Of a stretch of DNA of 64,000 nucleotides, positions 4,817-63,531 are shown one piece after another. A program made the position numbers and the translations under genes. Within the stretch, counting starts at the first letter, position 1. Every line of letters starts with the position of its first letter. Source of the DNA: Thermodesulfobacteriota bacterium (GTDB taxonomy: Bacteria; Desulfobacterota_D; UBA1144; Nemesobacterales; CSP1-2); assembly GCA_035559815.1 (NCBI GenBank), contig DATMAT010000029.1:2485-66484 (forward strand), read 5' to 3'. The notes under the pieces were generated by a model that did no database searches, was not told the origin of the DNA, and worked only from the letters and a program-made list of their open reading frames with translations.

Positions 4817-4935
4817 TAGCCACTAATTAACACAGATTAACACGAATAAAGATAAGTGAGATACATGATTCATGATATACAATGCAGGATTTATATGAAT
4901 ATTCTTACATGCATCCTGTATCGTGCTTCGTTCGA
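4817..4935. repeat. family F element (agccacNaat...acacgaat...catcctgNatcgtgcNtcg)
   Basis: similar copies at 23689-23805 and partial at 33765-33812. Confidence 0.5.
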
Positions 4936-6487: not shown

Positions 6488-6561
6488 GAGTCGATGGGAG
6501 CACATATTTAGACTTGGTTCTCTTCCGGAATAGACCGGCTTAGAAAATCCACATTATAAAT

Positions 6562-6589
6562 GTAGAGACGCATGGCCATGCGTCTCTAC
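6562..6589. repeat. REP (GTAG-type palindrome)
   Basis: gtagagacgcatggccatgcgtctctac, 75 nt after beta-propeller gene. Confidence 0.65.
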
Positions 6590-9463: not shown

Positions 9464-9545
9464 ATTTAAACTAGCTTTTTAAAGTTGTTGGGCTCTATCT
9501 TATAAGTTTTGTGATGATATCTTCGGCCAAATTTGTCCTACATAG

Positions 9546-10060
9546 CAGATTGATTGTCGGAGTCGGCCTGATAGTAATCAAAGAACTACAATGACGGGCA
9601 AAGAAAAAGTAACCCCTCTTTAATTCTTCTTCTGTAAGCCTGTCCTGAGCGGAGTCGAAGGGCCTGTCCTGAGCAAAGTCGAAGGGCGGAAGGATGCACT
9701 TTATAGGCACTACTAGCTGCATGGCTAGTTTATGAAGTTTTTCTTTTTGCTTGGAATTGCATGGGGTGACTGTGCGTCTCTTCATCTCACGCACATTACA
9801 CACCACTAAATCCCCTCTCAAGAGGGTACTTGATGTAGAAATTCCCCTCTAGAGAGGGGTGTCCCGAAGGGACGGGGTGTGTCAGTTTAGAGAGGATGTC
9901 ACGGAGGCGTAGATAAGATATTTTAAAAAATAGGGTTAGGACGGTGCTTGCATAGTAACATAAAAGAGTGGACCTGATTTTTAAAATATGTTTTAGCCAT
10001 CTAAAGGCTTTGTTTTACGAGAGTGAATTGTTGATTCTTGATTATTTTGGACAGCAGTGA
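9546..10060. repeat. copy 1 of duplicated conserved noncoding element (5' module 9546-9627, 3' module 9938-10060, repeat insertions between)
   Basis: about 75% identity to 59562-59830 over both modules. Confidence 0.6.
9637..9700. repeat. family A repeats (cccttcgacNNNgctcaggNNgaacgg type), two tandem units, reverse orientation
   Basis: ctgtcctgagcggagtcgaagggc x2. Confidence 0.7.
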
Positions 10061-16057: not shown

Positions 16058-16226
16058 CGCCCCGATAGTATTATTTCTTGCCACGGGTTAACACTAGTAC
16101 ATTATCATTGCTAACGCGGTGAAGCAATCTCGTTTTTGGATTGCTTCGTCGCTATGCTCCTCGCAATGACAACTGAGACGGTATTATTGTAAGATTAAAG
16201 TTTATTAATAGTGGGAGTGACTTATC

Positions 16227-24952: not shown

Positions 24953-25075
24953 TTCACCCTTCGACTGCGCTCAGGGTGAACGGTTTTTATTCCTTATTTC
25001 CAGCGGATGTAAATCCGCTCATGCTGAGTTTAGTCGAAGAATGAATTTAAAATGTAGGGAGTTCATCCTTCGTCA
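24953..25075. repeat. family A composite hairpin repeat
   Basis: cccttcgactgcgctcagggtgaacgg...cagcggatgtaaatccgctcatgctgag...gtcgaag. Confidence 0.7.
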
Positions 25076-29418: not shown

Positions 29419-30009
29419 ATGTTTAAGTCAAGACTAGTTAGTAAGAAGGGCGAAAAGGGTTTTACCCTGATCGAGCTGTTGGTGGTCGCGGCCATCATCG
29501 GCATATTGCTTGCGATCGCTATTCCTAACCTTATCAAGGCTAGGATGTCCGCGAACGAGGCGAACGCGAGAAAAGCCATGCAAACTTTAAGGGATGCAGA
29601 AGGTGAGTACTTCGAGCAGGACCTGGATAATAATGGAACTAGGGACTACATCGATGAAATAGGTAACCTTACTGGTACTACGCCTTCTTTACGTGACCCT
29701 GAAGGCACTGCTGATGAGCAAGATGCGCTTGTAGACAGTAGTTTTGAGGGGGCAAGCGATACTGGGGGTGCTGATTGTAGTGATCCAAAGGCGGGATATT
29801 GCATTAGATGGGATGCTGCTGTCGTTGCCAATGCAGCTGGCCTTTTTGACGATTTTGGTTGGCAGTCAACTATGACTAGCTTTAACAAGGTTGGAAGAAG
29901 AGACTACGCAGTATACGGGGATGGAGTTATAAGATGTGACGTCAGCACATCAGGAGTCGGCCAACCTGGAACATTTGAAGTTGATCGGACTGACCCTGGT
30001 TGTGATTAA
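29419..30009 (+). CDS. type IV pilin-like protein (prepilin N-terminal methylation domain)
   Basis: KGFTLIELLVVAAIIGILLAIAIPNL class III signal; C-terminal Cys pair; TDPGCD end. Confidence 0.7.
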   Translation: MFKSRLVSKKGEKGFTLIELLVVAAIIGILLAIAIPNLIKARMSANEANARKAMQTLRDAEGEYFEQDLDNNGTRDYIDEIGNLTGTTPSLRDPEGTADEQDALVDSSFEGASDTGGADCSDPKAGYCIRWDAAVVANAAGLFDDFGWQSTMTSFNKVGRRDYAVYGDGVIRCDVSTSGVGQPGTFEVDRTDPGCD

Positions 30010-30531: not shown

Positions 30532-31125
30532 ATGTTTAATTTAGGTATAAATACTGAAAAAGGTTTCACCCTTATTGAACTCTTGGTAGTAGCAGCCATC
30601 ATCGGAATATTACTTGGTATAGCGATTCCAAACCTTATTAAAGCACGTCTTTCGGCTAATGAGTCTAATGCCAGAAAAGCCCTTCAGACTATTAGAGATG
30701 CAGAATATGAATATTCCGAACAAGACTTAGATGATAATGGCGCAAGAGATTATACTAACTTTATAGGTTCGTTGGGTGCGTCAGGTACTTTGCGTGATCC
30801 TTCCGGTACCAACGACGAACAAAATGCGCTTCTGGATATCACTTTTGAAGGTGCAGTAGTGAATGACGGAAATGCAGCGGCTACCGCCAATTGCACTGAC
30901 CCAAAGGCAGGATATTGCATTGGATGGAGTGGAGATGTTAACACCGATTCTACTACGCTAGCAGGTGATTTTGGTTGGGAGGCTTCTATGACAGGTGCTG
31001 GTAAGACCGGAAGAAAAGATTTTTCTGTTTTTGCCGACAAGGTTATCAAATGTATTGCTACTACCCAATCTAGTGGCAGCGCAGGACAATTTGAATCATC
31101 CCGTACCGACCCTGATTGTGATTGA
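30532..31125 (+). CDS. type IV pilin-like protein, paralogue of 29419-30009
   Basis: same N-terminal prepilin domain, conserved DPKAGYCI(R/G)W and TDPDCD C-terminus. Confidence 0.7.
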   Translation: MFNLGINTEKGFTLIELLVVAAIIGILLGIAIPNLIKARLSANESNARKALQTIRDAEYEYSEQDLDDNGARDYTNFIGSLGASGTLRDPSGTNDEQNALLDITFEGAVVNDGNAAATANCTDPKAGYCIGWSGDVNTDSTTLAGDFGWEASMTGAGKTGRKDFSVFADKVIKCIATTQSSGSAGQFESSRTDPDCD

Positions 31126-31292: not shown

Positions 31293-32222
31293 ATGCTCAA
31301 AGTAGAAAATCTCGTAAAGGACTTCGCCACCGGATTTCTGAGAAAGAAGGTTCGGGTGCTCAAAGGTGTGTCTTTCTCAGTGAACAAGGGAGAGATATTC
31401 GGTTTTGTCGGGCCCAATGGTGCGGGGAAAACCACGACGTTTAAAGTGGTTCTGGGTTTTGTCCCCATTACAGATGGAAATGTTGAATTGATGGGGAAGC
31501 CACTCGGTGATGTGGATGTAAAAAAGCACATAGGCTACCTCCCGGAGAATCCATATTTCTATGATTACCTTACGGGCGAGGAGCTTCTTCGATATATGGG
31601 AGAGTTGCATGGGCTAAATGGAAAAGGTCTCTCCGCAAGAATCGATGAGCTTCTGGAGAAGGTAAAAATGTCTCATGCCCGAAAGGTGCAGTTGAGAAAA
31701 TATTCAAAAGGTATGCTTCAGAGGGTGGGTGTTGCTCAGGCCCTTATAAATGACCCTGATTTTCTTATCCTTGACGAGCCTATGACCGGGCTTGACCCTA
31801 TCGGACAAAGAGAAATAAAGGACCTGATTCTAGAGGAAAAAAAGAGGGGAAAAACCATACTTCTCAGTTCCCACATGCTCTCCGATGTCGAGGCTTTATG
31901 CGATAGGGTGGGGGTGGTTATGAACGGGAAAGTAGTCAAGATTGGCGAGCTGGGGAAGCTGTTTGAAGAGATTCATACGGATTATGAGATGCTTCTCAAG
32001 GGTGTTGATGAAAGGATTATGAACAGCCTTAGCGACCTTAAAGTTTCAGTCGAAAAAAGAGCAGGATTTACTGTTCTCAGGTTCGACGAAGATATTAAGA
32101 CCAGGGTATTCCAGGTCGTCTCTGATTCCGGTGCGGATATCGTCTCGCTTCATCCTTTAAGAAAATCTCTCGAAGGACTCTTCGTTGAGGAAGCGAAGAA
32201 GGATGTTCATCTTGAATCATGA
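31293..32222 (+). CDS. ABC transporter ATP-binding protein
   Basis: Walker A GPNGAGKTT, signature YSKGMLQRVGVAQAL, Walker B LILDEP. Confidence 0.85.
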   Translation: MLKVENLVKDFATGFLRKKVRVLKGVSFSVNKGEIFGFVGPNGAGKTTTFKVVLGFVPITDGNVELMGKPLGDVDVKKHIGYLPENPYFYDYLTGEELLRYMGELHGLNGKGLSARIDELLEKVKMSHARKVQLRKYSKGMLQRVGVAQALINDPDFLILDEPMTGLDPIGQREIKDLILEEKKRGKTILLSSHMLSDVEALCDRVGVVMNGKVVKIGELGKLFEEIHTDYEMLLKGVDERIMNSLSDLKVSVEKRAGFTVLRFDEDIKTRVFQVVSDSGADIVSLHPLRKSLEGLFVEEAKKDVHLES

Positions 32223-32632
32223 ACCGGTTTAGCCACGAATCTACACAGATGAACACGAATGAAAAAGATATTTTATATAAAGAGCTTTCTTATAAAATAA
32301 TTGGATTAGATATGGAAGTGCATAATAAACTGGGTTATGGATTCTTAGAAAAAGTCTATGAAAACGCTCTACTGATATTGTTACCGCGTAAAGATATCGA
32401 AGCAAAACAACAAGCACCGATAAAGGTATATTTCGAGGGGGAGGTTGTGGGAAATTACTTCGCTGATATTTTAGTTGAGGATAAAATTATATTGGAAATT
32501 AAAGCTTTAGACAAAATAATAGATGTCTACATTGCGCAGACGTTGAACTACTTAAAAGCAACTGGATTACAGTTAGCAATCATCTTAAATTTTGGTAAGA
32601 AGAGATTAGAGTACGAAAGAATCGTTAACTAG
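32219..32632 (+). CDS. GxxExxY-family protein (likely true start ATG 32249)
   Basis: LGYGFLEKVYENAL = G-x-x-E-x-x-Y signature; about 125 aa. Confidence 0.65.
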   Translation: MNRFSHESTQMNTNEKDILYKELSYKIIGLDMEVHNKLGYGFLEKVYENALLILLPRKDIEAKQQAPIKVYFEGEVVGNYFADILVEDKIILEIKALDKIIDVYIAQTLNYLKATGLQLAIILNFGKKRLEYERIVN

Positions 32633-34873: not shown

Positions 34874-35028
34874 GATAATATCAAAAACCTTTTCTAATCA
34901 ACTTCAAGCCAAAACCTTCGATTAATAAAATATAGAAGTTTCCTTATTTAATGAACACCAGAGGGATGCCCTACGCATGAGTGTGTACCTAGGTCATTTG
35001 TGAAAGTAGTAATCCAATGTAGAGGCGC

Positions 35029-35056
35029 AAAATTTTGCGTCTCTACCCGTGGGTGC
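35029..35056. repeat. REP (GTAG-type palindrome)
   Basis: gtagaggcgcaaaattttgcgtctctac. Confidence 0.6.
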
Positions 35057-36483: not shown

Positions 36484-36713
36484 AGAATTGGAAGATCTAT
36501 TGTTAGTGCCCTTCGGCAGGGTTTTAACAATAAGTCGGAGTGTTCGGAATACAATCTATGACCGAAGCAATCTACTTAGATTCCTCACGTTCTCCTTCGT
36601 CTTCGCTCAGGACTTGGTTCGGAATGACGACTTGTGTCAGATTGCCACGCTGCCAAAAGAAAGTGGCTTGCAATGACAGGTAGAATAGGTCATTCCAAGG
36701 ATGGTAAGCCGAG

Positions 36714-37729: not shown

Positions 37730-38025
37730 AATGAGTTCGCCCTTCGACTACTTCACCCTTCATCTTCGCTCAGTGTGAAGTAGTGTTAGAATGAGCTTTC
37801 CCTAGCTTCATGGTGAGGGCTTTGGCAAGCTCAGCATAAACTACGTCGAACCATGAGCCATTCGACTCGGCCCTTCTTCAAACGCAGGACAGGCTCAGGG
37901 CGAACGGAGTTTCATTTTATTAGTCATTTTAGCGGATAAGTATCCGCTCATGCTTGTCGAAGTATGATTTCTTGGGTGTTCATTCTTCCCCTGGTTAAAC
38001 CGAGGGACTTAGCTCAGAATGAACG
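37730..38025. repeat. family A repeat cluster
   Basis: gcccttcgactacttcaccc...gctcagtgtgaag...gtcgaaccatgag...gctcagggcgaacgg...agcggataagtatccgct. Confidence 0.7.
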
Positions 38026-38086
38026 AAGATCTATAAGACAAAACTGTTATGATTATTTATGAAGTAACTCACAGGAGGTTAAGAGC

Positions 38087-50305: not shown

Positions 50306-51106
50306 TTATCTGCCGCTAAAAGAGGGTTCCCGTTTTTCGAGGAAAGCCCTCATGCCTTCCACTCTGTCCTCAGAGTCAAAACATAGGGATACCAGGGTCT
50401 TTTCGAGTAGTAAGGCCTTCTGTAAATCCATCTCCGAGCCAGCGTTTATGGCTGTCTTGGCCATTCTGACTGCTCTCGGTCCTCTCTTGGAAATAATAAG
50501 GGCAAGATTCCTGGCCTCTTCCATTACCTTTTCGTGGGGTACGACTTTCTCCACAAGCCCAATTCTCAGTGCCTCTTGGGCGTCTATCATCTCACCGGTG
50601 AAAACCAGCTCCTTGGTTTTTCCCAGACCCAAAATCCTGGTCACCCTTTGAGTGCCGCCCCATCCGGGGAATATACCCAGCTTCACCTCTGGAAACCCCA
50701 GCTTGGCCCTCTCCGAAGCTATCCTGATGTCACAGGAAAGGGCCAGTTCACATCCCCCTCCTAGCGCATATCCGTTAATTGCGGCTAGGCAAGGGCTTGG
50801 GTCATTCTCTATAAGATGATAAACCTTGTGTGCAAGGTCTACGTATTCCTGAAACTCGGTGTCCTTCATCTGGTTCATCTCTGAGATGTCGGCCCCGGCG
50901 ACAAAGGCTTTATCCCCTGCTCCGGTTATAATCAGGGCCTTAAGGCCTTCTTTAGGAAGGATGTCTTCGAGGAAAAACCGGAGTTCCTTAAGGGTCATCC
51001 AGCTTAGCGCATTGAGTACCTTCGGGCGATTTATGGTCAGGATACCTATGTCGTTGGGCTCTCTTTCATAAGTGATAAATTCAAATTCCATGATTCCCCT
51101 CCTCAA
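50306..51106 (-). CDS. enoyl-CoA hydratase/isomerase (crotonase)
   Basis: ITGAGDKAFVAGADI ... ALGGGCELALSCDIRIA. Confidence 0.8.
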   Translation of the reverse strand: MRRGIMEFEFITYEREPNDIGILTINRPKVLNALSWMTLKELRFFLEDILPKEGLKALIITGAGDKAFVAGADISEMNQMKDTEFQEYVDLAHKVYHLIENDPSPCLAAINGYALGGGCELALSCDIRIASERAKLGFPEVKLGIFPGWGGTQRVTRILGLGKTKELVFTGEMIDAQEALRIGLVEKVVPHEKVMEEARNLALIISKRGPRAVRMAKTAINAGSEMDLQKALLLEKTLVSLCFDSEDRVEGMRAFLEKREPSFSGR

Positions 51107-51194
51107 TTATTCGCTTAGCCTATGGTAAGTTATCCAGCCTTAAAAAAGCTTGTCAAATGCATTCAGTATCAAACTTGTCCAAATAGTAGATTGC

Positions 51195-51310
51195 TTTGCA
51201 ATGACACCTTCTGTCTTGTCAATGCGAGAGACCCTTCGACGGAGTTTACACTGAGTTTATCGAATGTGCTCCGGGCAGGCCTTGCTTAAAACGTGTGAGT
51301 ATAAGGTTAA
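51195..51310. repeat. 115-bp repeat unit, near-identical copy at 57095-57215
   Basis: caatgacacc...cccttcgacggagtttacactgagtttatcgaatgtgctc(c/a)gggc(a/t)ggccttgcttaaaacgt. Confidence 0.75.
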
Positions 51311-51560
51311 GTGGGAATACACCGATCTGTCATTCCCGCGGAAGCGGGAATCCAATCTTTAATTATAGATTCCCGATTAAAAGATTTCGGGAATGACAAA
51401 GTGGATGGATCCCCGATTAATCCAGTCCCCAAATGTTTTTATTGGTGAACATTCGGGAATGACAACCAGGATGGATCTCTGATTCAGCTTGTCCCCGCGT
51501 ATGCGGAGAACAGGAATCCACCGATCTGTCATTCCCGCGGAAGCGGGAATCCAGTATTGT
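51310..51560. repeat. family C palindromic repeats (gtcattcccgcg-gaag-cgggaatcc), mixed orientation
   Basis: at least 4 units/half-units at irregular spacing. Confidence 0.7.
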
Positions 51561-51579
51561 AATTCCGGAGCCCCGATCG

Positions 51580-51790
51580 ATCCCCCGGTTTGCCCTGGAG
51601 ACCTGGCTCAGGACTGGCGGGTTTTGTTTTTAAAGCTTTTACTGCAGATATACATCCGCTCATTCTGAGCATCGTCGAAGGATGAATTAAGAGTGAATTA
51701 AAGCGAGAGGGGTTCATTCTTCGACTCGCCTGTAGTGAGCATGTCGAACTACTCAGAATGAACGGGTTTTGTTTCATAAAGCCTTTTGAG
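51580..51790. repeat. family A-type repeats
   Basis: cctggctcaggactggcggg...cagatatacatccgctcattctgagcatcgtcgaagg... Confidence 0.65.
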
Positions 51791-51812
51791 CGAATAGGCT
51801 ACAGGTACACTC

Positions 51813-52550
51813 TCAATACTTTACCTCTTTGAGGAAAAGTCCCCAAGGCGGAGCAGAGCGCACGAAATGTGTCTTCTCGCCCGTTTCCAGAATTCTCTTA
51901 AAATCCTGGATATCGATTTTACCTTTTCCCACGTGTACAAGTGTTCCTACTATTAAACGAACCATACCCTTGAGAAACCCGTTAGCCTCTATGTGAAACT
52001 CGATAATGGAATCGTGTTTTTCATCCAGGCCTACGGTCAAGACCGTGCGTACCTTGGTTTTTACATTAGTTTTGGATAACGCGAAGGCACTAAAATCGTG
52101 CCGGCCTAAGAGCATCTGGGCGGCTTTTTTCATTTTGGATTTATCTAGCTTAACCGGGATAAACCAGGCTCTTTGTCTTTCTAGTGCCGATGGGAAGGGG
52201 CTATTCAAGATTCTATAAGCATATACCTTGCTTTTTGCGTCTAGCTGGGCGTGGAAGTGGATGTCCACCTCTTCGGCTTCCTTAATCACTATATCTTTTG
52301 GTAAGGAAGAGTTAAGCGCTTTCTGGAATTGAGAAGGGGTCATTTTAGTCTCGGTCTTGAAATTTGCCACTTGCGCCAGTGCATGTACCCCGGAATCTGT
52401 CCTGCCCGAGCCGATAACATTTATTTTCTCCTTGGTGATCTTTTCCAGGGCCTTTTCTATGCACTCTTGTATCGTCTGGCCTTGGGGTTGTCTCTGCCAT
52501 CCTAAATAATTCGTGCCGTCGTATTCTATGATGAGTTTTATGTTGCGCAT
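51813..52550 (-). CDS. truA: tRNA pseudouridine(38-40) synthase
   Basis: MRNIKLIIEYDGTNYLGWQRQ...GSGRTDSGVHA; ATG at 52550 preferred over track TTG at 52580. Confidence 0.8.
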   Translation of the reverse strand: MRNIKLIIEYDGTNYLGWQRQPQGQTIQECIEKALEKITKEKINVIGSGRTDSGVHALAQVANFKTETKMTPSQFQKALNSSLPKDIVIKEAEEVDIHFHAQLDAKSKVYAYRILNSPFPSALERQRAWFIPVKLDKSKMKKAAQMLLGRHDFSAFALSKTNVKTKVRTVLTVGLDEKHDSIIEFHIEANGFLKGMVRLIVGTLVHVGKGKIDIQDFKRILETGEKTHFVRSAPPWGLFLKEVKY

Positions 52551-52725
52551 TTCCGTAAATTCGTGGAAATTTGACCGCAAATCAGCACGATTAGAAAAAT
52601 GGGTTTCAGTTTCGAGTTGACGAGTTTGCGGGTTGACGGGTTAAACTTCTAACCAGCAAACCTGATAGCAAGTAAACAATAACAACACATTTGTGTCCAT
52701 TCGTGCTAATTCGTGGCTGTATAAC

Positions 52726-53655
52726 CTAATTTTTTCTTTTCTCAAACTTTATCCTCGGGTCGAGGAGGGTATAGCAGATATCCACGATTAAATTGGCTAG
52801 GACGAGTATTAACGTGTAAACAATGGTTATTCCCATGACCAGCGGGTAGTCCCTGTTTGAAACCGCAAATACGAAAAATCTTCCCATTCCCGGGATCGCA
52901 AATATATGCTCTACCACGAATGACCCGGTGACCAGATAAGCGGTGATCGGCCCCAACACGGTTACTACTGGAATAAGTGCATTTCTCAGGATGTGCTTTA
53001 CCACCACCTTTACTTCACCCAGTCCTTTAGCCCTGGCCGTTTTTACGAATGGCGCTTGGGAGGTTTCCAGCATACTGGCCCTTATCAAGCGGGTAAGATA
53101 GGCGGTGGGCCCCGCCGCTAGGGTCAACCCGGGGAGTACAAGGTGTTCCAGCCTTCCCCATAGGGCGGCCGGGAACAAGCCCAGTTTCACCGAGAATAGG
53201 TATATTAGAATGGCGCCCACTACGAAGTTGGGGACGGAGACCAGTGCGGTTGCTACGGAGAAGGAAAGAAAATCCAAGAACCCTCTAGGCCGGGTTGACG
53301 AGAGTATCCCCAGGGTCGTCCCCACTCCTATCGTGATTAAAAGCGCGACAATCCCCAGGGTGACCGAGACGGGGAGGGTCTCTTTAATGATCTCGTTCAC
53401 CGAGCGGTCGACGTATTTGTAGGAAGGACCTAAGTCCCCTCGAACCAGGTTTTTCAGGTAAATTCCATATTGCTTTAATATTGGTTCGTTAAGCCTATAT
53501 TTTTCTTCTATGTTTTTTTGAATTTGGGGAGGAAGCTTCTTTTCCGTGTCGAAGGGGCCGCCGGGCAGGGCCCTTAATAGAAAGAAGGTGAATGTGGCTA
53601 CTACGAAAACAACTGAAGACCCGGTAAAGGCGCGACTAAGTATGAATTTGAACAT
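52726..53655 (-). CDS. ABC transporter permease (DppB/OppB type)
   Basis: 6 TM; EAA-like loop region; 309 aa. Confidence 0.75.
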   Translation of the reverse strand: MFKFILSRAFTGSSVVFVVATFTFFLLRALPGGPFDTEKKLPPQIQKNIEEKYRLNEPILKQYGIYLKNLVRGDLGPSYKYVDRSVNEIIKETLPVSVTLGIVALLITIGVGTTLGILSSTRPRGFLDFLSFSVATALVSVPNFVVGAILIYLFSVKLGLFPAALWGRLEHLVLPGLTLAAGPTAYLTRLIRASMLETSQAPFVKTARAKGLGEVKVVVKHILRNALIPVVTVLGPITAYLVTGSFVVEHIFAIPGMGRFFVFAVSNRDYPLVMGITIVYTLILVLANLIVDICYTLLDPRIKFEKRKN

Positions 53656-53673
53656 TCATCGAAAAAGCCCTTT

Positions 53674-56598
53674 TTAAGCTCCCTTCCTCACCACGAAGGT
53701 TCTCTTCGAGAATACATCCTTGGCGTTCTTTGCATAAACCGTTACCGAATTAATCCCATCGGCTAGCTTTACCGGTATGGAGATGGGCACATCCTTTCCC
53801 TGGGACGGCAGCAATTCCACCTTATCGTCCCCCACGAAGATTGAGACCAGTTGAATTCCGTACTCATCCCTTATAGCTCCGCTCAGGTTTATTTGGTCGG
53901 AATTGGTATGAAGCGGGGGGTTGGCTAAATTTATAGTAGGTGGCTTTTGAAAAACCTCGGTAAAACCGGAGTCGCTGGGGAGTACCTGGGAATCCGCGAA
54001 GACGACGTCGTCCTTACTCACCCAGCCGGTTAGTTTTTCGCCAAGTTTGAGTTTTAGCCAGCCTTCGCTCTCTACCGTGCTCGTAAAAACCGAGCCTTTT
54101 TCGGATACAGCGATAATCGGAGCTTCGATAAAGCTTCCTCCTCTTATCGGCGCCTTATCCCTGGAGACTATGACTACCCGTGAGCTGGCCGGGAACCGTA
54201 CTTGGCCGCTTTTTTCGGGGATTTGTACCTTACTGGTTAGCCCTTCCCTCAAAACTTCATCCAACATCTGAAGCTCCATGTTAATTAAGCTGTCCGGCTT
54301 TTTAGCGCTGAATGTTAAGACCTCCTCTTTTATTTCGCCGGGGTTAAGGTTCTTAAACTGTACCCTGCCCCTTTTCAGGAACGCTTTATCACCGGAGAGA
54401 TTTTTAAGCGATAAAACCCCCTCCTCTGCCGTTCCCTTTCCAATGTTTTTTATCCTGACTAAAAGCGCTATGGTCTCTCCCACCTCCGGGATTCCGTCTC
54501 CGTTTCCCTCGGAGCCGTGCCTTCCGTCGTCTATGACCTGGTAATTGAAGGCAAAGATTGGCCTGGGAAGCTCCTCTATTACCGCCTCAAACTTGGAATC
54601 GGGAAAGGCAGTATTGTATGCATCCTTGAACTCAAGGGTGATTTCGGCTTCCCTGGTCAGAACCCACCTGGGGATTTCAAATGTTACGCTCCACTTTCTT
54701 TTCTCTCCAGGATTTAGTCTCCCAAAGGTAAACTCCTTGCCGTTGAATATCTCGTCCTCGGATTTGGTTATGGCGTTTAGCCGGTAAATAGTCGCCGGCC
54801 CGGTATTTTCCACCTCGGCTGTAACCGTAAGCTGGTCCCCCGCCTTAGCCCTAAGAACGCCTGGCTCCAGTTTGACGTCGAGGGTAGAAGCCCCTGGAAA
54901 TGCCCCGTCCAGTGACCAGTCCACCCCTATCTCCTGCCACATTTCCTCTATCTTTCTTTCTTCATCCTTGGAGATTCGGTGTATTTTATCCTGCGCCTCC
55001 CCGAGCATCTTTTCCCTGGCTACCGAGTCGGAGGAGCGGATAATTTCTTTGGCCAGGGTTACATAGAAATCGTTCTCGATTTTTTTCCTTCTCTCTTGGC
55101 GGCTGAGGGCTTCTTCCGGAGTCTCCTCGTCCGGGTCAGTAACCGGCTCCTGGGTCTCCAGGTAGCTGATTGTGTAGACTGGTTTATCGGTTGTTTCCTT
55201 TTGTCCGTTTGACTTTTCGCGCTGCTCGTTCTCGGGAGGGGAACCGAGGGCGATTTCCCTGGAAATAACCGCCGGTTGAATACCGATATCCGGTGTAATT
55301 CCTATATCTTGTATGGAAATATCGCCCGGTGTGAGATAATGGGCAATGGTCAACTTGAGCGCGGAGCCGTCGTTAAGGTCGAATATTTGCTGGACCGAAC
55401 CTTTGCCGAATGTCCTCTGCCCGATGACTACCCCCCGGTCGTTGTTCTTTATAGCCCCGGCCACGATCTCCGATGCGCTGGCGCTGCCCGAGTCTACGAG
55501 GACGACTATCCTTCCGCTGAAATCATAATCTTCATGCTGTGCATAGTATGGTTTTTTTGAATTTCCAATCTCAGTGGTTACTACAACCCCGCTCTTTAGA
55601 AATAGGTCTGAAATTCTTTCCGCCTGGTCCAAAAGCCCTCCTGGATTTCCTCTGAGGTCGAGTATGAGTCCCTTCAAAGTGCCGTTCTTGGCGAAGTCCT
55701 TAAGGGTATCCTGCAGGTTGGATAGGGTGTTTTTCTGAAAGTCCCTTATTTTAACGTATATGATACCGTCATTAAGATTGAAGGCTTCTACGCTTTGGAT
55801 GTTAATGGTGTCTCTGACGATGGAGAATCTTTTTGGTTCAGGAAGGCCTTCCCTGTGGATATGGATGTTCACCACGCTGCCTTTCGGCCCCCTGAGCTTT
55901 CCCACCGCCTCGATGAGAGACATGTTTACCGTGGATTCATCCTCGATCTGGACAATCCGGTCGTTGGGTTTTATCCCGACCCGGTAAGCCGGCGTTCCTT
56001 CGATCGGGGCGATGACGGTTAGATTCCCGTCCCTGATTCCTATGACTATACCCAGGCCGCCAAAGCTGCCCTCGGTTTCGATGGTGAATTCCTGATAAAC
56101 CTGGGGGGTAATTATCCCGGAATAAGGGTCAAGGGTCTTGAGCATCTCATCGGTTACGGCGTACTCTACGTCAATGGCCGTAGGTTCTTTGGAGACCCGG
56201 CGGGGCATGACGAAACGAAAAACCTCCTCCACTTTATCGGCGGCGCTATCCAGGTCGACGACATCGGTCATGGTAAAGGTCTTTTCTTCACCCATCACCC
56301 GGACGACGAAAGTAGGGCTGTTCTCTCCATCCGGAAAGCTGACCAGCACCTCGTCGAGGGTTCTTTCCAATTTGTTGAGCCCGTTGACCAGCATAGCCCG
56401 GGGGTTTATAGCCGGTTGATCCACATAGTATCTTTTCACATAACGCATGGTCAGGGGAAGAATGTTTACATTGCCGCCCTGGCCTGATTCTTTTTCAGAG
56501 TTTTGAAGCCTGGGCGAGAGAAATAAAAGGTAAACCAGGAGGAGAAAAACAAAAAAAATAAATCGGTTTCTCCTTATTAGATTGGACATTATTTGCAA
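53674..56598 (-). CDS. S41-family C-terminal processing peptidase with PDZ domain and about 500-aa C-terminal extension
   Basis: GLILDLRGNPGGLLDQAERISDLFL S41 motif; PDZ upstream; signal/TM at N-terminus. Confidence 0.75.
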   Translation of the reverse strand: MQIMSNLIRRNRFIFFVFLLLVYLLFLSPRLQNSEKESGQGGNVNILPLTMRYVKRYYVDQPAINPRAMLVNGLNKLERTLDEVLVSFPDGENSPTFVVRVMGEEKTFTMTDVVDLDSAADKVEEVFRFVMPRRVSKEPTAIDVEYAVTDEMLKTLDPYSGIITPQVYQEFTIETEGSFGGLGIVIGIRDGNLTVIAPIEGTPAYRVGIKPNDRIVQIEDESTVNMSLIEAVGKLRGPKGSVVNIHIHREGLPEPKRFSIVRDTINIQSVEAFNLNDGIIYVKIRDFQKNTLSNLQDTLKDFAKNGTLKGLILDLRGNPGGLLDQAERISDLFLKSGVVVTTEIGNSKKPYYAQHEDYDFSGRIVVLVDSGSASASEIVAGAIKNNDRGVVIGQRTFGKGSVQQIFDLNDGSALKLTIAHYLTPGDISIQDIGITPDIGIQPAVISREIALGSPPENEQREKSNGQKETTDKPVYTISYLETQEPVTDPDEETPEEALSRQERRKKIENDFYVTLAKEIIRSSDSVAREKMLGEAQDKIHRISKDEERKIEEMWQEIGVDWSLDGAFPGASTLDVKLEPGVLRAKAGDQLTVTAEVENTGPATIYRLNAITKSEDEIFNGKEFTFGRLNPGEKRKWSVTFEIPRWVLTREAEITLEFKDAYNTAFPDSKFEAVIEELPRPIFAFNYQVIDDGRHGSEGNGDGIPEVGETIALLVRIKNIGKGTAEEGVLSLKNLSGDKAFLKRGRVQFKNLNPGEIKEEVLTFSAKKPDSLINMELQMLDEVLREGLTSKVQIPEKSGQVRFPASSRVVIVSRDKAPIRGGSFIEAPIIAVSEKGSVFTSTVESEGWLKLKLGEKLTGWVSKDDVVFADSQVLPSDSGFTEVFQKPPTINLANPPLHTNSDQINLSGAIRDEYGIQLVSIFVGDDKVELLPSQGKDVPISIPVKLADGINSVTVYAKNAKDVFSKRTFVVRKGA

Positions 56599-56664
56599 GA
56601 TTTTTTACCCCTCAAGCGCTTTGGTTCTCTGACAGTAGATTATTATCTTAATTGAATGGATTTA

Positions 56665-57105
56665 TCAAATCAAATCTGACTTGAGGATTTCTTTTACCTT
56701 CTCCACAACGCCCCCTATTCTCACCGGCCTGGTGATAACGTGCTTGAACCCGGCCTTTTCAAGCCCTATGGCTTTCCTCTTGCCGCCAGCCGCTATTATT
56801 AAGATTGGAATCGATGAGGCGTGCTCAGAAAGAATCTTGATGTCCCGAGTTGGGTCATCTTGGGATTGATTGTCGTATATTATGATTGCCGGTATTATTC
56901 TCTTATCGGAAATCCAGTCGAGTCCTTCGTTCAATGTCTCAACGGCCAGGGTTCTGATCCCCTCCTCTAGAAGCTGGGCCCGGAGAAAAGCCCTTTCCCG
57001 CCAATCCTTCATTATCAATATCGCCGCACGTGTTTTCATGAGGAAACTATGACAATTATACTTCTTCCAACTGATCCAAAATAGGAGATTCCTTCGCAAT
57101 GACAC
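56665..57105 (-). CDS. stand-alone receiver-domain-like protein
   Basis: about 120-aa alpha/beta pattern resembling CheY-like REC; weak. Confidence 0.35.
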   Translation of the reverse strand: MSLRRNLLFWISWKKYNCHSFLMKTRAAILIMKDWRERAFLRAQLLEEGIRTLAVETLNEGLDWISDKRIIPAIIIYDNQSQDDPTRDIKILSEHASSIPILIIAAGGKRKAIGLEKAGFKHVITRPVRIGGVVEKVKEILKSDLI

Positions 57106-57215
57106 CTTGGGTCTTGTTATTGCGAAGAGCCATTCGGCCCTTCGACGGAGTTTACACTGAGTTTATCGAATGTGCTCAGGGCTGGCCTTGCTTAAAACGT
57201 TTGAGTATAAGTGAG
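57095..57215. repeat. second copy of the 115-bp unit
   Basis: see 51195-51310. Confidence 0.75.
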
Positions 57216-57222
57216 AATCCAC

Positions 57223-57530
57223 CAATCTGTCATTCCCGCGCAACTTGTCCTCGACCATGATCGGGGAGCGGGAATCCGTCCACCTGTCATTCCCACGCAA
57301 GTGGGAATCCATTGTTTAATTATGGATCCCCGATTAATCTTGTCCCCGCATGTGTCTGGCGGGGAACATTCGGGGATGACAACCAGGGGGATCCCCCGGT
57401 TAAAACGGGGGACGGGGATGACATGCGGAGAGGAACCTCGCTTGATCTCTCGGTTTAACCGGGGTACAGGCATGACCGGAAGACTACTGTCATTCCCGTG
57501 GAAGCGGGAATCCAGTTTTTCAAAAAATGG
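57223..57530. repeat. family C palindromic repeats with nested insertion
   Basis: gtcattcccgcg[caacttgtcctcgaccatgatcgggga]gcgggaatcc etc. Confidence 0.7.
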
Positions 57531-57629
57531 ATCCCCGATTCGATAAAATTCAGTGTGTACTCCATCGTAGGGATAAACTACGACGAAGTAGAACATGAGT
57601 AATCTTTTGACGAGTTCGCCCTTCCCCCG

Positions 57630-57900
57630 GTTAAACCAGGGGACCTGGCTCAGGACGAACGGGCTTTTATTTCATAAAGCCTTTACAGCGGATATACATC
57701 TGCTCATTCCTTCATTGCACTCACCCTTCGTCTCCGCTCAGGGTGAAGTGGTATTAGAATGAGCTTGCCCTTCCTTCATGGTGAGCGGAGTCGAACCATG
57801 AGCCTTTCGCCTCCGCTCAAAGCCTGTCCTGAACCTGCTGAGGGCATAAACTCCGTCGAACCATGGGCCCATCGGTAAACTCTGAGCCTGTCGAAGGATG
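57630..57900. repeat. family A-type repeat cluster
   Basis: cacccttcgtctccgctcagggtgaag...gagtcgaaccatgag... Confidence 0.7.
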
Positions 57901-58173
57901 TAGTTTCTTGACGAGTTCTATCAACTTACTACTCAAGGCGAAAGGCATCATTAAGGTGCTGAATTGCGCTTTGCATCAGATCGCTTTAAGGAGCTCACCC
58001 AGCGCGTTCGAGCGCTTCGCAATCGCAAAGTGAAGCAAGTCATTATTCCTTTTTTCGTATACTAATCTAAGCTAGGGGTTGGAAAAAATGGAAAAAAAGG
58101 GCCTTGTGTGTTACCTTTTTAATACGAAGAGGGTTTAAATCTAAGGGTACTAAACTGTCCAAGGAGGACTCTA

Positions 58174-58626
58174 ATGAAAAAAAGCGTAGTTTCAATGTGT
58201 ATGGTTATAAGTCTGGTGGTTTCTACAATGGGCTCATCTGCTTTTTTATCTTCCTGTGCCACCAGCCAGCGTACCTATGAGGGTGCCGGGGTAGGCGCTG
58301 CGCTCGGCTCCGTGGCCGGGCTTTTGATCGATGACGACAACAGATGGCGGGGCGCTGTAATCGGTGGTTTGATCGGCGCTGCTGTTGGCGGTACGGTCAC
58401 CGAGATATCCCAAAGGGCGGCGCGCGAGGCTGCATATGAAGGACGGCCGGTTGCTTATCAGAGTACAGATGGGTTCCAGAGGGTGGAAGCTACACCGGTA
58501 GGTTATGATGCGAGTACCAAGTGTCATAAAGTTCGGGAGAGGGTGTGGCAGGATGGCCAGCTAGTAAAGGATGAAGTAAGAGAGGTATGTGAGTCCGACA
58601 GGGTAGAGCCGGGATATAATTATTAG
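58174..58626 (+). CDS. glycine-zipper (SlyB / 17-kDa antigen-like) lipoprotein
   Basis: lipobox LSSC; GAGVGAALGSVAGLLI...GAVIGGLIGAAVGG. Confidence 0.5.
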   Translation: MKKSVVSMCMVISLVVSTMGSSAFLSSCATSQRTYEGAGVGAALGSVAGLLIDDDNRWRGAVIGGLIGAAVGGTVTEISQRAAREAAYEGRPVAYQSTDGFQRVEATPVGYDASTKCHKVRERVWQDGQLVKDEVREVCESDRVEPGYNY

Positions 58627-58703
58627 TGATTATTTAGCCACGGAGAACATAGAGACTTCGCTAAGATCAGTCGAGCATTCAAGAATTTTTCTTTGAGCTA
58701 TTA

Positions 58704-58744
58704 AAGCCAGAGAGATTAAACACATCTTTCTGGCTTTTTATTTG
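58704..58744 (+). terminator. intrinsic terminator
   Basis: aaagccagaga...tctttctggc then tttttatttg. Confidence 0.6.
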
Positions 58745-58989
58745 CCCCGTGAGATAAGTTTTACTATCCAACGGGTTGAGATACGCAGTGGTATTAACCC
58801 ACGAAACGAGGGTCTCTCAGGTCTCACGGAATTATCTCTTGGGGTTAATACTGCTTTCCAAAAAATTAGAAACCAGTGGTTCACACTCGCAAACAAGGAC
58901 TTTAGATAGGTAAAAAGTCTTTTTAAAATCAGGTTTACTTTTCTATGTTTGTTATGCAAGTGCTGTTCCAACCCTATTCGTTGAAATTG

Positions 58990-59165
58990 CCTTTTTAACC
59001 CTGCTCACCCTTCGTCTCCGCTCAGGGTGAAGGGCATGGTATTGCTTGGAGTTTTAGACCTGCCTTCATGGTGAGCGGAGTCGAACCATGAGTAGTTCGA
59101 TTGCGCTCAAAGCCTGTCCTGAGGAATAAACTCAGTCGAACCATGGACCCTTCTAAGCATAATCT
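58990..59165. repeat. family A repeat cluster
   Basis: near-copy of 57720-57870. Confidence 0.7.
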
Positions 59166-59298
59166 CGTTTTTTCAATGGATTGCTTCGTCGCTTTGCTCC
59201 TCGCAATGACACCCAGGAAATGGCGACTCTTCTCTCTGACTCCACGCGAAGCAATCTTTTAATTTCGGACAAGGTTGACCGCTACAAATGATGGCTTA

Positions 59299-59326
59299 GT
59301 AGGGGCACGCTGCAGCGTGCCCCTAC
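59299..59326. repeat. REP (GTAG-type palindrome)
   Basis: gtaggggcacgctgcagcgtgcccctac. Confidence 0.65.
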
Positions 59327-59561
59327 CATAGTAAAAAGACGTCTGAAGAAAAAAACTAAGTATTATCCCAACCCGTGAAATAAATTTTACTATCTAACTA
59401 ACTCGCCATACTCCAAAGCTAGTGCTGTTTTATAACGATTTGCACGTAAATATGGAACCAACATTCGTATATGTAAGACGTGAGAGTATGTGTTGATCCC
59501 CAATTAGAAAGATAATAAAAGATAATAGAGGTTAAAACTGTCCCAAATAGAGGGATTGATT

Positions 59562-59830
59562 GCAAGAGTTCGTCTGATAGTAATCAAAGGGCTCCAATGA
59601 CGGATAAATAAGAGGAAGCAAACCCCTCTCTTTAATTCCCCCCCTTAGTAAGGGGGGAAATGCAAGGGGGTTAGAAGGGCTATTTGAACGAATAGGATCA
59701 GTACAGCGCTTGCATAGGAAACATCAAAGAGAGTAACCTGATTTTAAGAAGCCGTTTTATCCGTCGAAGAGCCTTGTTTTATAAAGGGTGAATCTGTTGG
59801 TTTTTAATTATTTTTGATAGCAGTGTATAC
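59562..59830. repeat. copy 2 of duplicated conserved noncoding element, followed by hicB 3' fragment (59809-59865)
   Basis: aligns to 9546-9627 and 9938-10060; tacactgctatcaaaaataa corresponds to hicB end gatcactgctgtccaaaataa. Confidence 0.6.
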
Positions 59831-59874
59831 AGGGTATCCTTTGAGGCAATGCCTAATGATCGTATAGATCGTTT

Positions 59875-59902
59875 GGAGGGGTTCAAAATTTTGAACCCCT
59901 CC
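59875..59902. repeat. REP-like perfect palindrome
   Basis: ggaggggttcaaaattttgaacccctcc. Confidence 0.55.
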
Positions 59903-60032
59903 AAAAGCAAAATACATTCAGCACATAGCAAAGTTATGGGCTCTATTATTCAGTGCAGACAAATCTGCCGCTCAGGCTGTTCTGCGTGTTTTTACACAAC
60001 AAACAGATTTTTTATATTTTAATGAAAAGCTC

Positions 60033-60061
60033 TTGACAAGGTATGTGATTTGTGATGTAAT
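60033..60061 (+). promoter_or_regulatory. sigma70-like promoter (TTGACA-17-TGTAAT)
   Basis: ttgaca aggtatgtgatttgtga tgtaat. Confidence 0.45.
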
Positions 60062-60136
60062 TGCTTTAATTTTAAAGGAGGATAGAAAGAGTGATGTCAT
60101 CTGTTCAAGCCTGTTTTGGATCCACAAAGAAAGGGC

Positions 60137-60165
60137 TTGACAATCAATTTTTTCTGTGTTGTAAT
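60137..60165 (+). promoter_or_regulatory. second sigma70-like promoter (TTGACA-17-TGTAAT)
   Basis: ttgaca atcaattttttctgtgt tgtaat. Confidence 0.45.
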
Positions 60166-60312
60166 TCAAAGCATCCAAAAGTCTGGAGGAGGCTTTTTTA
60201 AAAATCTTAAGGAGGATGAAAGCCATCTCAAAAAATCAATTCCCGAATCCAACCGTTTTTTCCCATAATCAATACCTGAAGCTTAATAAAACAACGAAAA
60301 AGGAGGGTGTAA

Positions 60313-62825: not shown

Positions 62826-62853
62826 GTAGGGGTTCAAAATTTCGAACCCCTAC
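62826..62853. repeat. REP (GTAG-type palindrome)
   Basis: gtaggggttcaaaatttcgaacccctac. Confidence 0.65.
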
Positions 62854-62917: not shown

Positions 62918-62989
62918 TTTGCCCTAAGAGATTATTTTATTACCGATTGGGTGAAGGTCTAATTTTATTTCACAGGGGGAATGTTAAAG

Positions 62990-63531
62990 ATGAGTTATGA
63001 TCCTGATAGACATCAGCGTAGGTCTATTAGATTAAAAGATTATGATTATTCTCAACCAGGAGCGTATTTTGTAACGATATGTACGCGTGACCGGGAATGC
63101 CTTTTGGTGATATTGTTGAAGGTCGAATGTTTTTGAATGAAATCGGTTTTCTTGTGAGTGATGAATGGATCCGTTCAGTTCAATTACGAAAAGAAATCGA
63201 ATTAGATGAGTTTGTTGTAATGCCAAATCATCTACACGGTATTGTTATAATTAGAGAATCAAATGTAGGGGCGACCGGCCGGTCGCCCCTACCTAAGGGA
63301 CCCAAGCCGAGATCAATAGGGGCGTTTATTGCAGGTTTTAAATCCTCTGCAACAAAACGAATAAATATAATGCGTGGTACCTCCGGTTTCCGTATATGGC
63401 AACGTAATTATTACGAACGCATCATCCGAAACGAAGATGAATTAAATGAGATCAGAGAGTATATCGCTAATAACCCCCTAAAATGGGAATCGGATGAAGA
63501 AAACCCGGACGTTTACCCTATGGCTTTTTAA
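62990..63531 (+). pseudogene. REP-associated tyrosine transposase (RAYT, IS200/IS605 Y1 family), frameshifted
   Basis: frame 2 from 62990: MSYDPDRHQRRSIRLKDYDYSQPGAYFVTICTRDREC; frame 1 from 63097: (M)PFGDIVEGRMFLNEIG...VVMPNHLHGIVII...WQRNYYERIIRNEDELNEIREYIANNP; one missing T in ctttt(t)gg joins them. Confidence 0.65.
63265..63292. repeat. REP-type palindrome embedded in RAYT coding sequence
   Basis: gtaggggcgaccggccggtcgcccctac encodes VGATGRSPL. Confidence 0.5.

Follow-up and report, generated by a model that had tools for sequence, protein, structure and literature searches.

Two intergenic regions in a 64,000-nucleotide stretch of contig DATMAT010000029.1 from a Thermodesulfobacteriota bacterium (the whole of this 64-kb stretch is referred to below as the window) are probably paralogous, diverged copies of one composite non-coding repeat block, a mosaic of hairpins of the repetitive extragenic palindrome (REP) class that is built like the neisserial intergenic mosaic element (NIME) arrays of Neisseria and, more loosely, like the bacterial interspersed mosaic elements (BIMEs) of E. 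coli. Locus 1 (51092-51812) is bounded on one side by an enoyl-CoA hydratase (ECH) gene on the minus strand, whose true start is the ATG at 51091 and which has a GGAGG ribosome-binding site, and on the other by the stop of truA (51813). Locus 2 is the divergent spacer between a 124-aa open reading frame (ORF; minus strand, start at 57039) and a glycine-zipper lipoprotein gene (plus strand, start at 58174). Its repeats stop near 57920, and the remainder (57920-58173) is native sequence upstream of the glycine-zipper gene, partly kept in relatives. The building blocks are three hairpin families: family A, with the conserved loop CTGAGC-N3-GTCGAAG and covarying stems; family B, a tagged hairpin of the form TGTC-ATTGC...GCAAT-CC; and family C, TGTC-ATTCCCGC-GGAA-GCGGGAAT-CCA. 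The modules follow the same order at both loci, beginning with a shared unit, continuing with TGTC-ATTCCCGC-type palindromes in both orientations, and ending with A-type hairpins (51656-51765 at locus 1 and 57700-57900 at locus 2). An earlier note on this DNA had described this common order, including the family C palindromes in mixed orientation with nested insertions and the family A hairpins in last place, and we found all of the features it described in the sequence. The limits it gave for the two regions, 51107-51812 and 57106-58173, have to be shifted, as locus 1 begins at 51092 and the repeats of locus 2 end at about 57920.

In a pairwise alignment, positions 51170-51665 and 57068-57710 are collinear over ~500-640 bp, and the collinearity includes a linker (ggccttgcttaaaacgtgtgagtata...) that is common to the two copies and is found nowhere else in the window. 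Using this linker as a probe on metagenome contigs, we recovered two contigs. The first, L067, contains the orthologous region of a strain that is 94-96% identical to the window. The second, L068, is from the same metagenome. At 1863-2190, among unrelated flanking genes, it holds a third copy of the block, with the module order and the left boundary of the window copies. Copy 1 has orthologs in L067 and in L069, a contig ~92% identical to the window, each with different deletions. The copies share their left boundary (AACT..TCCAAATAG), which equals half of the spacer of a B-B dimer, as well as a truncated half C element ahead of the first full one, and their most conserved stretch (96% over 74 nt) runs across the junction between a host hairpin and the module nested in it. 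No paralogy was found among the genes downstream of the three copies. These genes are unrelated, and therefore what was copied is a non-coding composite and not a gene together with its upstream region. Gene callers placed no genes inside the block in L069 or in L070, a contig from a more distant relative.

The earlier note had proposed a different history, the serial insertion of small elements into one another. The two regions would then be independent pile-ups, each a hot spot that received the same small elements in turn, and insertion-site preferences would explain the common order. Part of this proposal stands, since nested insertion is real. At the position occupied by a nested module in both window copies and in L067, L068 has an uninterrupted hairpin, cccttctac-TAC-gctcagggcaggcc, and this pair of an empty and a filled site is direct evidence of nested insertion. 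Moreover, hairpins of the same families adjoin or nest elsewhere in the window, for example at 36629, 16171, and 59211. What serial insertion at two separate places does not account for is the sharing of a non-repetitive linker that is absent from the rest of the window, the identical left boundary, the identical half C element before the first full one, a conserved stretch that crosses the junction between host and nested module, and the same order in the third copy. These observations argue for copies of a pre-assembled block, and we consider two independent pile-ups unlikely.

The best conserved part of the block corresponds to what had been reported as a 115-bp unit about 95% identical between the loci. 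The shared unit is confirmed, but its highly conserved part is shorter than 115 bp: the core, 51232-51305 versus 57138-57211, is 96% identical over 74 nt, and the extended unit, 51181-51305 versus 57079-57211, is 85.7% identical over 133 columns (E = 5e-26). The unit is itself a mosaic, made of a B hairpin pair, an A hairpin, a nested 27-nt module, and the unique linker with the right half of a C element. The counterpart of the B pair in copy 2 is a 13-bp hairpin (57092-57104 / 57115-57127), and that of the linker, which is kept in all four copies, lies at 57188-57227.

Could the unit instead be a functional RNA? According to this reading, the conserved 74-133 nt would represent a cis-regulatory RNA or a small RNA gene, or the entire block would be a portable promoter or 5′ leader that carries the repeats as passengers. 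The conservation of the unit, which exceeds that of the rest of the block, agrees with it, as does the fact that in three of three copies the end of the unit lies 25-78 nt upstream of a start codon on the same strand. Small RNAs and promoters derived from miniature inverted-repeat transposable elements (MITEs) exist in Coxiella. The remaining results point the other way. Rfam gave no relevant match, either at the gathering threshold over the whole window or in E-value mode over 51000-58300; the gathering search was also run on 18 Bacteroidota loci that contain the nested module (see below), and only a cobalamin riboswitch and 5S rRNA came up overall. When the unit was folded, as the earlier note had recommended, it was no more stable than shuffled sequences (z from +0.5 to -1.7, for both strands and three copies). 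Promoter and terminator scans revealed nothing conserved between the copies of the unit, and no terminator is present; a site in locus 2, ATGACA-N18-TATACT, has a spacing of 24 nt in the other copies, so there is no conserved sigma-70-type promoter. In addition, the unit is partly deleted in close strains, with 24-27 nt missing from its middle in L068 and the left 100 nt missing in L069, while the downstream gene is intact, and the three downstream genes are unrelated to one another. A structured small RNA is not supported as an identity for the unit, and the suggestion that it is a small RNA or a transposase-recognition site was not borne out for a unit that is a mosaic and is damaged in close relatives. 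Taken as a whole, the RNA or leader explanation appears slightly less probable still than that of independent pile-ups. At the left end of all three copies (51170-51195, 57068-57092, and 1863-1885 of L068), TATTTGGA(C/T) is conserved. It has the same strand as the downstream gene and lies 25-78 nt from the start codon of that gene, and in two of the three copies it is followed 13-18 nt later by a -10-like hexamer. From these positions, a portable -35 function of the left end of the block is conceivable, though the spacing is not conserved.

The family C elements allow the block to be placed among known repeat systems. The strict pattern GTCATTCCC-N8-GGGAATC has four matches (51329, 51528, 57286, and 57489) and none in shuffled sequences, and it occurs nowhere else in the 64-kb window. 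Further copies are present in inverted orientation or with loops expanded to 10, 28, or 36 nt, and the clusters fold far better than their shuffles (z = -3.4 and -5.6). The TGTC tag precedes the stem in the canonical copies at 51328, 51527, 57228, 57285, and 57488 and, on the other strand, at 51398 and 51464. The stems of 8 bp enclose loops of 4 nt in the combinations ATTCCCGC-GGAA-GCGGGAAT (twice), ATTCCCAC-GCAA-GTGGGAAT, and ATTCCCGT-GGAA-GCGGGAAT, and a CCA tail follows at 51352-51354, 51551-51553, 57309-57311, and 57512-57514. Head-to-head pairs are formed by 51454-51464 / 51527-51537 and by 57412-57423 / 57488-57499, and a tail-to-tail pair spans 51328-51398 (at these two loci of the 64 kb). 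The element at 51406-51464 has a counterpart, 57323-57381, that keeps an intact nested hairpin (GTCCCCGC-N9-GCGGGGAAC). Related contigs carry further C copies at other loci (7517-7626 of L067, and L068), and at least 120 IMG/VR contigs contain the pattern. A copy from N. gonorrhoeae reads CGTCATTCCCGCGAAAGCGGGAATCTA, and the ATTCCCAC/GTGGGAAT stem variant is also found in a N. gonorrhoeae sequence; a literature search with peptide and DNA strings returned a Neisseria sequence for family C as its sole match.

CGTC-tagged REPs are characterized by a terminal CGTC tag (often TGTC or CCTC), an 8-bp stem beginning with A-T pairs, and a CCA tail (PMC3733652). Their family 1 has a loop of 4 nt, and the Neisseria CGTC-1 element is dRS3 (Di Nocera, De Gregorio, Rocco 2013, PMC3733652). 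In Neisseria and Wolbachia they form large clusters interleaved with other repeats, with no dedicated transposase known (PMC3733652). Judged by its sequence, family C fits every stated feature of the published CGTC-1 family, including dRS3: the CGTC/TGTC tag, the 8-bp stem starting with A-T, the 4-nt loop, the CCA tail, the intergenic position, the occurrence in several phyla, and the head-to-head and tail-to-tail dimers. It differs in that the host phylum is absent from the five listed in 2013 (PMC3733652) and in that runs of head-to-tail elements and variants with expanded loops are common here, whereas head-to-tail dimers were described as negligible in the same work.

Beyond the single element, the arrangement resembles that of NIMEs, in which 20-bp dRS3 inverted repeats (ATTCCCNNNNNNNNGGGAAT) flank RS segments of 19-214 bp and form arrays that change from strain to strain (Bentley et al. 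2007, PMC1797815). The core of family C matches the dRS3 consensus ATTCCC-N8-GGGAAT exactly and is nearly identical to the gonococcal copies. There are four exact consensus matches and six loop-expanded or ATCCCC variants, 13-72 nt apart, in both orientations, with short unrelated or repeated segments between them and other repeat families mixed in. Syntenic arrays likewise vary in length and content between strains, as seen in the truA-ECH spacers of the window, L067, and L069. The differences are the host, which is uncultured and has Thermodesulfobacteriota- or Deltaproteobacteria-labelled relatives rather than being a Neisseria; the spacers, which measure 13-72 nt here versus ~50-150 nt in Neisseria; and the many elements with nested hairpins in their loops. 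In Neisseria, a phage transposase integrates at dRS3; no phage or recombinase targeting dRS3 was seen in the window. Canonical elements have a G+C content of 50-60% and some spacers one of 21-38%. Nested hairpins hold the G+C content high over long stretches, so a regular wave of dRS3 peaks and RS troughs is not evident. The loci work like a NIME array, yet they are not neisserial NIMEs in the strict sense.

The BIMEs and REPINs (REP doublets forming hairpins) of E. coli likewise consist of short imperfect palindromes that cluster as mosaics between genes and alternate in orientation, with inverted doublets able to form long hairpins. However, the REPs of BIMEs have a GTAG tag and a linked REP-associated tyrosine transposase (RAYT, TnpA-REP), and the A, B, and C elements have TGTC or other heads. 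An identity as BIMEs or REPINs with a RAYT was rejected on the basis of the TGTC tags, and the RAYT-like gene of the window is tied to different palindromes of the GTAG type. Hence, the REP-type mosaic of the earlier note was correctly recognized, but the nearest precedent is found in the NIME/dRS3 arrays of Neisseria and the CGTC-tagged REP class rather than in the BIMEs of E. coli. In kind only, the block is also reminiscent of the small dispersed repeats (SDRs) of Nostoc, as short, sharp-edged modules are placed precisely into other repeats or palindromes. SDRs, the subject of work by Elhai and colleagues in 2008, are reportedly nested modules of 21-27 nt with sharp boundaries, and descriptions of them come from cyanobacteria only. 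The 24-nt module described below is, in contrast, identical in sequence across at least seven phyla, a comparison made with SDRs by description only. PMC4390886 reports an SDR5 inserted precisely into HIP1.

As for the other hairpins, the loop motif of family A occurs 15 times in the window versus about two in shuffled sequences, and 11 of the 68 loci that were fetched from other phyla contain A hairpins. For a covariation test, instances were picked by the loop alone and seven flanking positions were scored. The flanks pair in 71% of cells versus 55% in shuffles, with a covariation score of 0.54 versus 0.24 (none of 500 shuffles reached 0.54), and controls slid along the sequence gave 0.11-0.18. 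Family A is thus a genuine hairpin. Its second inverted A-in-A nesting lies at 51727-51752, within 51712-51765. Family B and a third, TGTC-ATTCC type are scattered in the window; for family B, the motif scan gave additional instances at 16171, 36079, 36484, and 59211. The right part of copy 1 (51582-51665) has its counterpart at 57624-57709 in copy 2, with related copies at 25002 and 37931. Nesting is also seen outside the two loci, at 36585-36629 (minus strand), where a CGTC-tagged hairpin with an ATTCC stem holds an A-type hairpin (CCTGAGCGAAGACGAAGG) in its loop, and a gene-free mosaic of 1.7 kb (58627-60312) contains A, B, and GTAG hairpins.

The arrays differ between strains. In L067, a segment is missing that in the window is bracketed by 41-nt direct repeats (51314-51354 / 51513-51553); the orthologous locus 2 has a 48-nt insert in the loop of a B hairpin, and downstream of an FAA hydrolase gene there is a C doublet in place of the different sequence found in the window. 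Three pieces are missing from L069: 51165-51267, the stretch enclosed by two CCCCGA repeats (51411-51416 and 51571-51576), and the A hairpins, which lie between GCNGATA-like repeats; two of these three indels are edged by CCCCGA or GCNGATA microhomology. Arrays at the same site thus differ by module-sized indels among strains 92-96% identical, several of them bounded by short direct repeats. In L070 and L071/L072, which are 70-78% identical to the window, gene order is kept, and no C, unit, or module sequence was found at their truA-ECH or glycine-zipper/123-aa spacers; L071/L072 have spacers as short as 10-144 bp. As these relatives lack the repeats, the arrays are of recent origin, specific to this lineage, and quickly turned over. 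By TruA, the closest relatives with a name are metagenome-assembled genomes (MAGs) labelled Thermodesulfobacteriota or Deltaproteobacteria and 'bacterium HR37', and repeat families of the window recur in contigs of Dadabacteria CSP1-2; the placement of the host is inferred. A further repeat family of ~300 bp, 76-81% identical between copies, is present at 59535-59837, 9528-10059, and 58845-59001 and at 3338-3634 of L069, where it sits next to truA, which is not the case in the window.

Neither locus is an assembly artefact, the possibility that the earlier note had raised against its own description. An artefact made of collapsed or chimeric repeats is very improbable: although the short-read Logan contig L001 breaks within both loci (at 51529 and 57167), which indicates that assemblers have trouble there, it is 100% identical to the window across 51529-57167 and confirms the left end of copy 2, two independent assemblies from related strains (L067 and L069) run through locus 1 into the genes on either side, and L067 also holds the start of locus 2. 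A tandem repeat search found no tandem or regularly spaced arrays in either locus, and therefore they are not a CRISPR array (short palindromic repeats that are clustered and regularly interspaced), which the earlier note had already excluded on account of the mixed orientation and irregular spacing.

Some observations do weigh against the interpretation of the two regions as copies of one composite block and should be considered together. We found neither terminal inverted repeats nor target-site duplications of the composite, and its right boundary is diffuse. It was also rejected as a MITE on these grounds, having no matching inverted end, a diffuse right end, and no duplication. Within the 64-kb window, the C elements and the unit are limited to these two loci. 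No transposase or recombinase in the window is linked to A, B, or C elements, and the structure of locus 2 past 57167 depends on the present assembly. In the stems of family A, G-T mismatches number 21 versus 14 for A-C (p = 0.31), with no strand bias, so the counts do not separate a role in RNA from one in DNA. Finally, the same end of all three copies is situated 25-78 nt upstream of a gene start, and this common placement could hint at a cis-regulatory role of the block.

How would such blocks arise? Single hairpins would spread as non-autonomous elements of single-stranded, hairpin-forming DNA with a preference for existing hairpin loops, through a putative mobilising enzyme acting in trans. 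The assembled composite would then be duplicated whole, through transposition or through recombination or gene conversion between arrays, and arrays would grow and shrink through slippage or recombination involving their internal direct repeats. For the cell, the consequences are most likely structural, in the form of intergenic hairpins of DNA or RNA and of hot spots for recombination, and an effect through an encoded RNA or protein is unlikely. In a Pfam search of every window ORF of at least 100 aa, these were ordinary cellular genes without mobile-element or recombinase domains, with one exception, a RAYT-like Y1 transposase (62990-63531) flanked by, and containing, GTAG palindromes and not A, B, or C elements. 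Phage and IS110-type genes were likewise absent from the window. The RAYT-like gene, of the IS200 family (Y1_Tnp) and 5 kb from the loci, is apparently frameshifted into ORFs 62981-63136 and 63097-63531. Its GTAG palindromes lie inside the coding sequence (63264-63292) and just upstream (62826-62853), with similar ones at 6559-6589, 35016-35046, and 59303-59327, and pieces resembling its 5′ coding end occur at 4865-4903 and 38019-38057.

Table 1. Coordinates of the repeat block copies and their component elements (positions of the window; a dot marks features without a single strand).
Feature	Position	Strand	Remarks
Composite block, copy 1	51170..51665	+	Between truA (stop 51813) and ECH (start 51091); modules from left to right: B pair, A hairpin holding the nested module, linker, C array, E module, small hairpin
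B-type TGTC-tagged hairpin	51189..51206		Reverse complement TGTC-ATTGC-AAA-GCAAT-C; motif scan
B pair with degenerate second B head	51189..51230	.	Second head, 51217-51230, faces hairpin 51189-51206
A-type host hairpin (cccttcgac ... gctccgggcaggcc)	51232..51281	-	Core of the "115-bp unit"
Nested 27-nt module GGAGTTTACACTGAGTTTATCGAATGT	51241..51267	+	AT-rich A-type hairpin, inverted, at centre of host loop
Linker ttgcttaaaacgtgtgagtataaggttaag and right half of C element (gtgggaatacacc)	51282..51327	+	Linker block-specific
C element TGTC-ATTCCCGC-GGAA-GCGGGAAT-CCA	51328..51354	+	Canonical
C element with 10-nt loop (TGTC-ATTCCCGA-aatcttttaa-TCGGGAAT)	51366..51398	-	Tail-to-tail doublet with 51328-51354
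C element	51406..51464	-	36-nt insert in loop, GTCCCC...GGTGAAC hairpin remnant; head-to-head partner of 51527-51553
C element	51527..51553	+	Canonical; within 41-nt direct repeat 51314-51354 / 51513-51553
CCCCCGG hairpin and half A element (ggctcaggactggcggg), then small hairpin GCAGAT-ATAC-ATCCGC	51582..51665	+	Right part of block
A-type hairpins outside shared block	51656..51765	.	51656-51686 (+), 51712-51765 (-)
Composite block, copy 2	57068..57710	+	Divergent spacer of 124-aa ORF and glycine-zipper gene
Nested 27-nt module, copy 2	57147..57173	+	Inside host hairpin 57138-57187
C element	57228..57278	+	28-nt loop instead of 4-nt (24 nt more than copy 1; alignment columns 243-266)
C element ATTCCCAC-GCAA-GTGGGAAT	57285..57311	+	Compensated stem variant
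Two inverted C-type elements	57323..57423	-	57323-57381 and 57389-57423, each with nested hairpin
C element ATTCCCGT-GGAA-GCGGGAAT-CCA	57488..57514	+	Canonical but for one G-T stem pair
C-like element	57528..57574	-	Loop holds degenerate reverse-complement module TTCGATAAAATTCAGTGTGTAC (57539-57560)
A-hairpin mosaic of locus 2	57702..57900	.	Host 57702-57764 with nested 57720-57748; further hairpins 57774-57802, 57806-57819, 57844-57874, 57876-57900

The module nested in the host hairpin has a wider distribution. Its 20-mer core (TTTACACTGAGTTTATCGAA) has 67 matches in 65 genome loci from at least seven phyla (Bacteroidota, Patescibacteria, Cyanobacteriota, Pseudomonadota, Chloroflexota, Ignavibacteriota, and Dadabacteria), where one to three would be expected by chance. 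Conservation ends sharply, one base to the left of the core (G, 75%) and three to the right (GTG, ~88%), which defines a unit of 24 nt, GTTTACACTGAGTTTATCGAAGTG. A-type hosts account for nine instances and B-type hosts for at least three, and 16 lie between inverted repeats of at least 8 bp, including terminator-like hairpins; in these hairpins the module occupies the centre of the loop. In eight instances, a -10-like hexamer follows TTTACA at 17-18 nt. Loci L003, L025, L041, L045, and L047, from Patescibacteria, read TTTACA, 17-18 nt, TAnnAT, ~10 nt, and ATG, a layout that suggests that the module may supply the -35 box and the spacer of a promoter there. Seven instances adjoin the 3′ end of a tRNA by pattern match, and ARAGORN placed six of them 0-2 nt from the tRNA end. 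The tRNA-adjacent modules, near tRNAs for Gly, Arg, and Ser, are those of L005, L015, L050, L055, L061, and L065 (MAGs from the candidate phyla radiation and elsewhere). Read as its reverse complement, the module starts 0-2 nt past the tRNA 3′ end, and in L050 and L061 the module fills the entire tRNA-tRNA spacer of 25-27 nt. The module is absent from the IMG/VR viral contigs, has no Rfam match in the 18 Bacteroidota loci at the gathering threshold, and yielded no description in the searchable literature. We tentatively propose, as a possibility that is less likely than not to hold in full, that GTTTACACTGAGTTTATCGAAGTG is an undescribed, essentially invariant pan-bacterial micro-element, either mobile and targeting hairpin loops and stem ends or a conserved protein-binding hairpin, with a putative partner enzyme.

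The window has some further features. A cobalamin riboswitch (Rfam RF00174, 108.8 bits) at 2658-2851 is located upstream of the genes for a TonB-dependent receptor (2930-4804) and a periplasmic binding protein. An ORF of the PD-(D/E)XK nuclease family (PDDEXK_3, 32219-32632) is located between the genes for an ABC transporter ATPase, which it overlaps by 4 nt, and an ABC-2 permease. Two neighbouring genes, 29419-30009 and 30532-31125, have N-terminal methylation (pilin-like) motifs and share a stretch of 197 nt with 74% identity.

Arrays of the dRS3/NIME type, which in 2007 were called specific to Neisseria, are extended by these results to an uncultured lineage labelled Thermodesulfobacteriota. 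What was known is the dRS3/CGTC-REP array of the NIME type, and what is new is the lineage that carries it. In the strain series formed by the window, L067, L069, and L068, nested insertion and the loss of modules bounded by microhomology are directly readable. This is useful for research on REP dynamics and for annotators, as such regions break short-read assemblies and yield spurious ORFs. The 24-nt module offers, in turn, a sharply defined probe for how CGTC and A hairpins, which have no known transposase, stay near-identical across phyla. If it were indeed a micro-element with a partner enzyme, the same putative machinery would explain the near-identical A-type and CGTC-type hairpins found in distant phyla.

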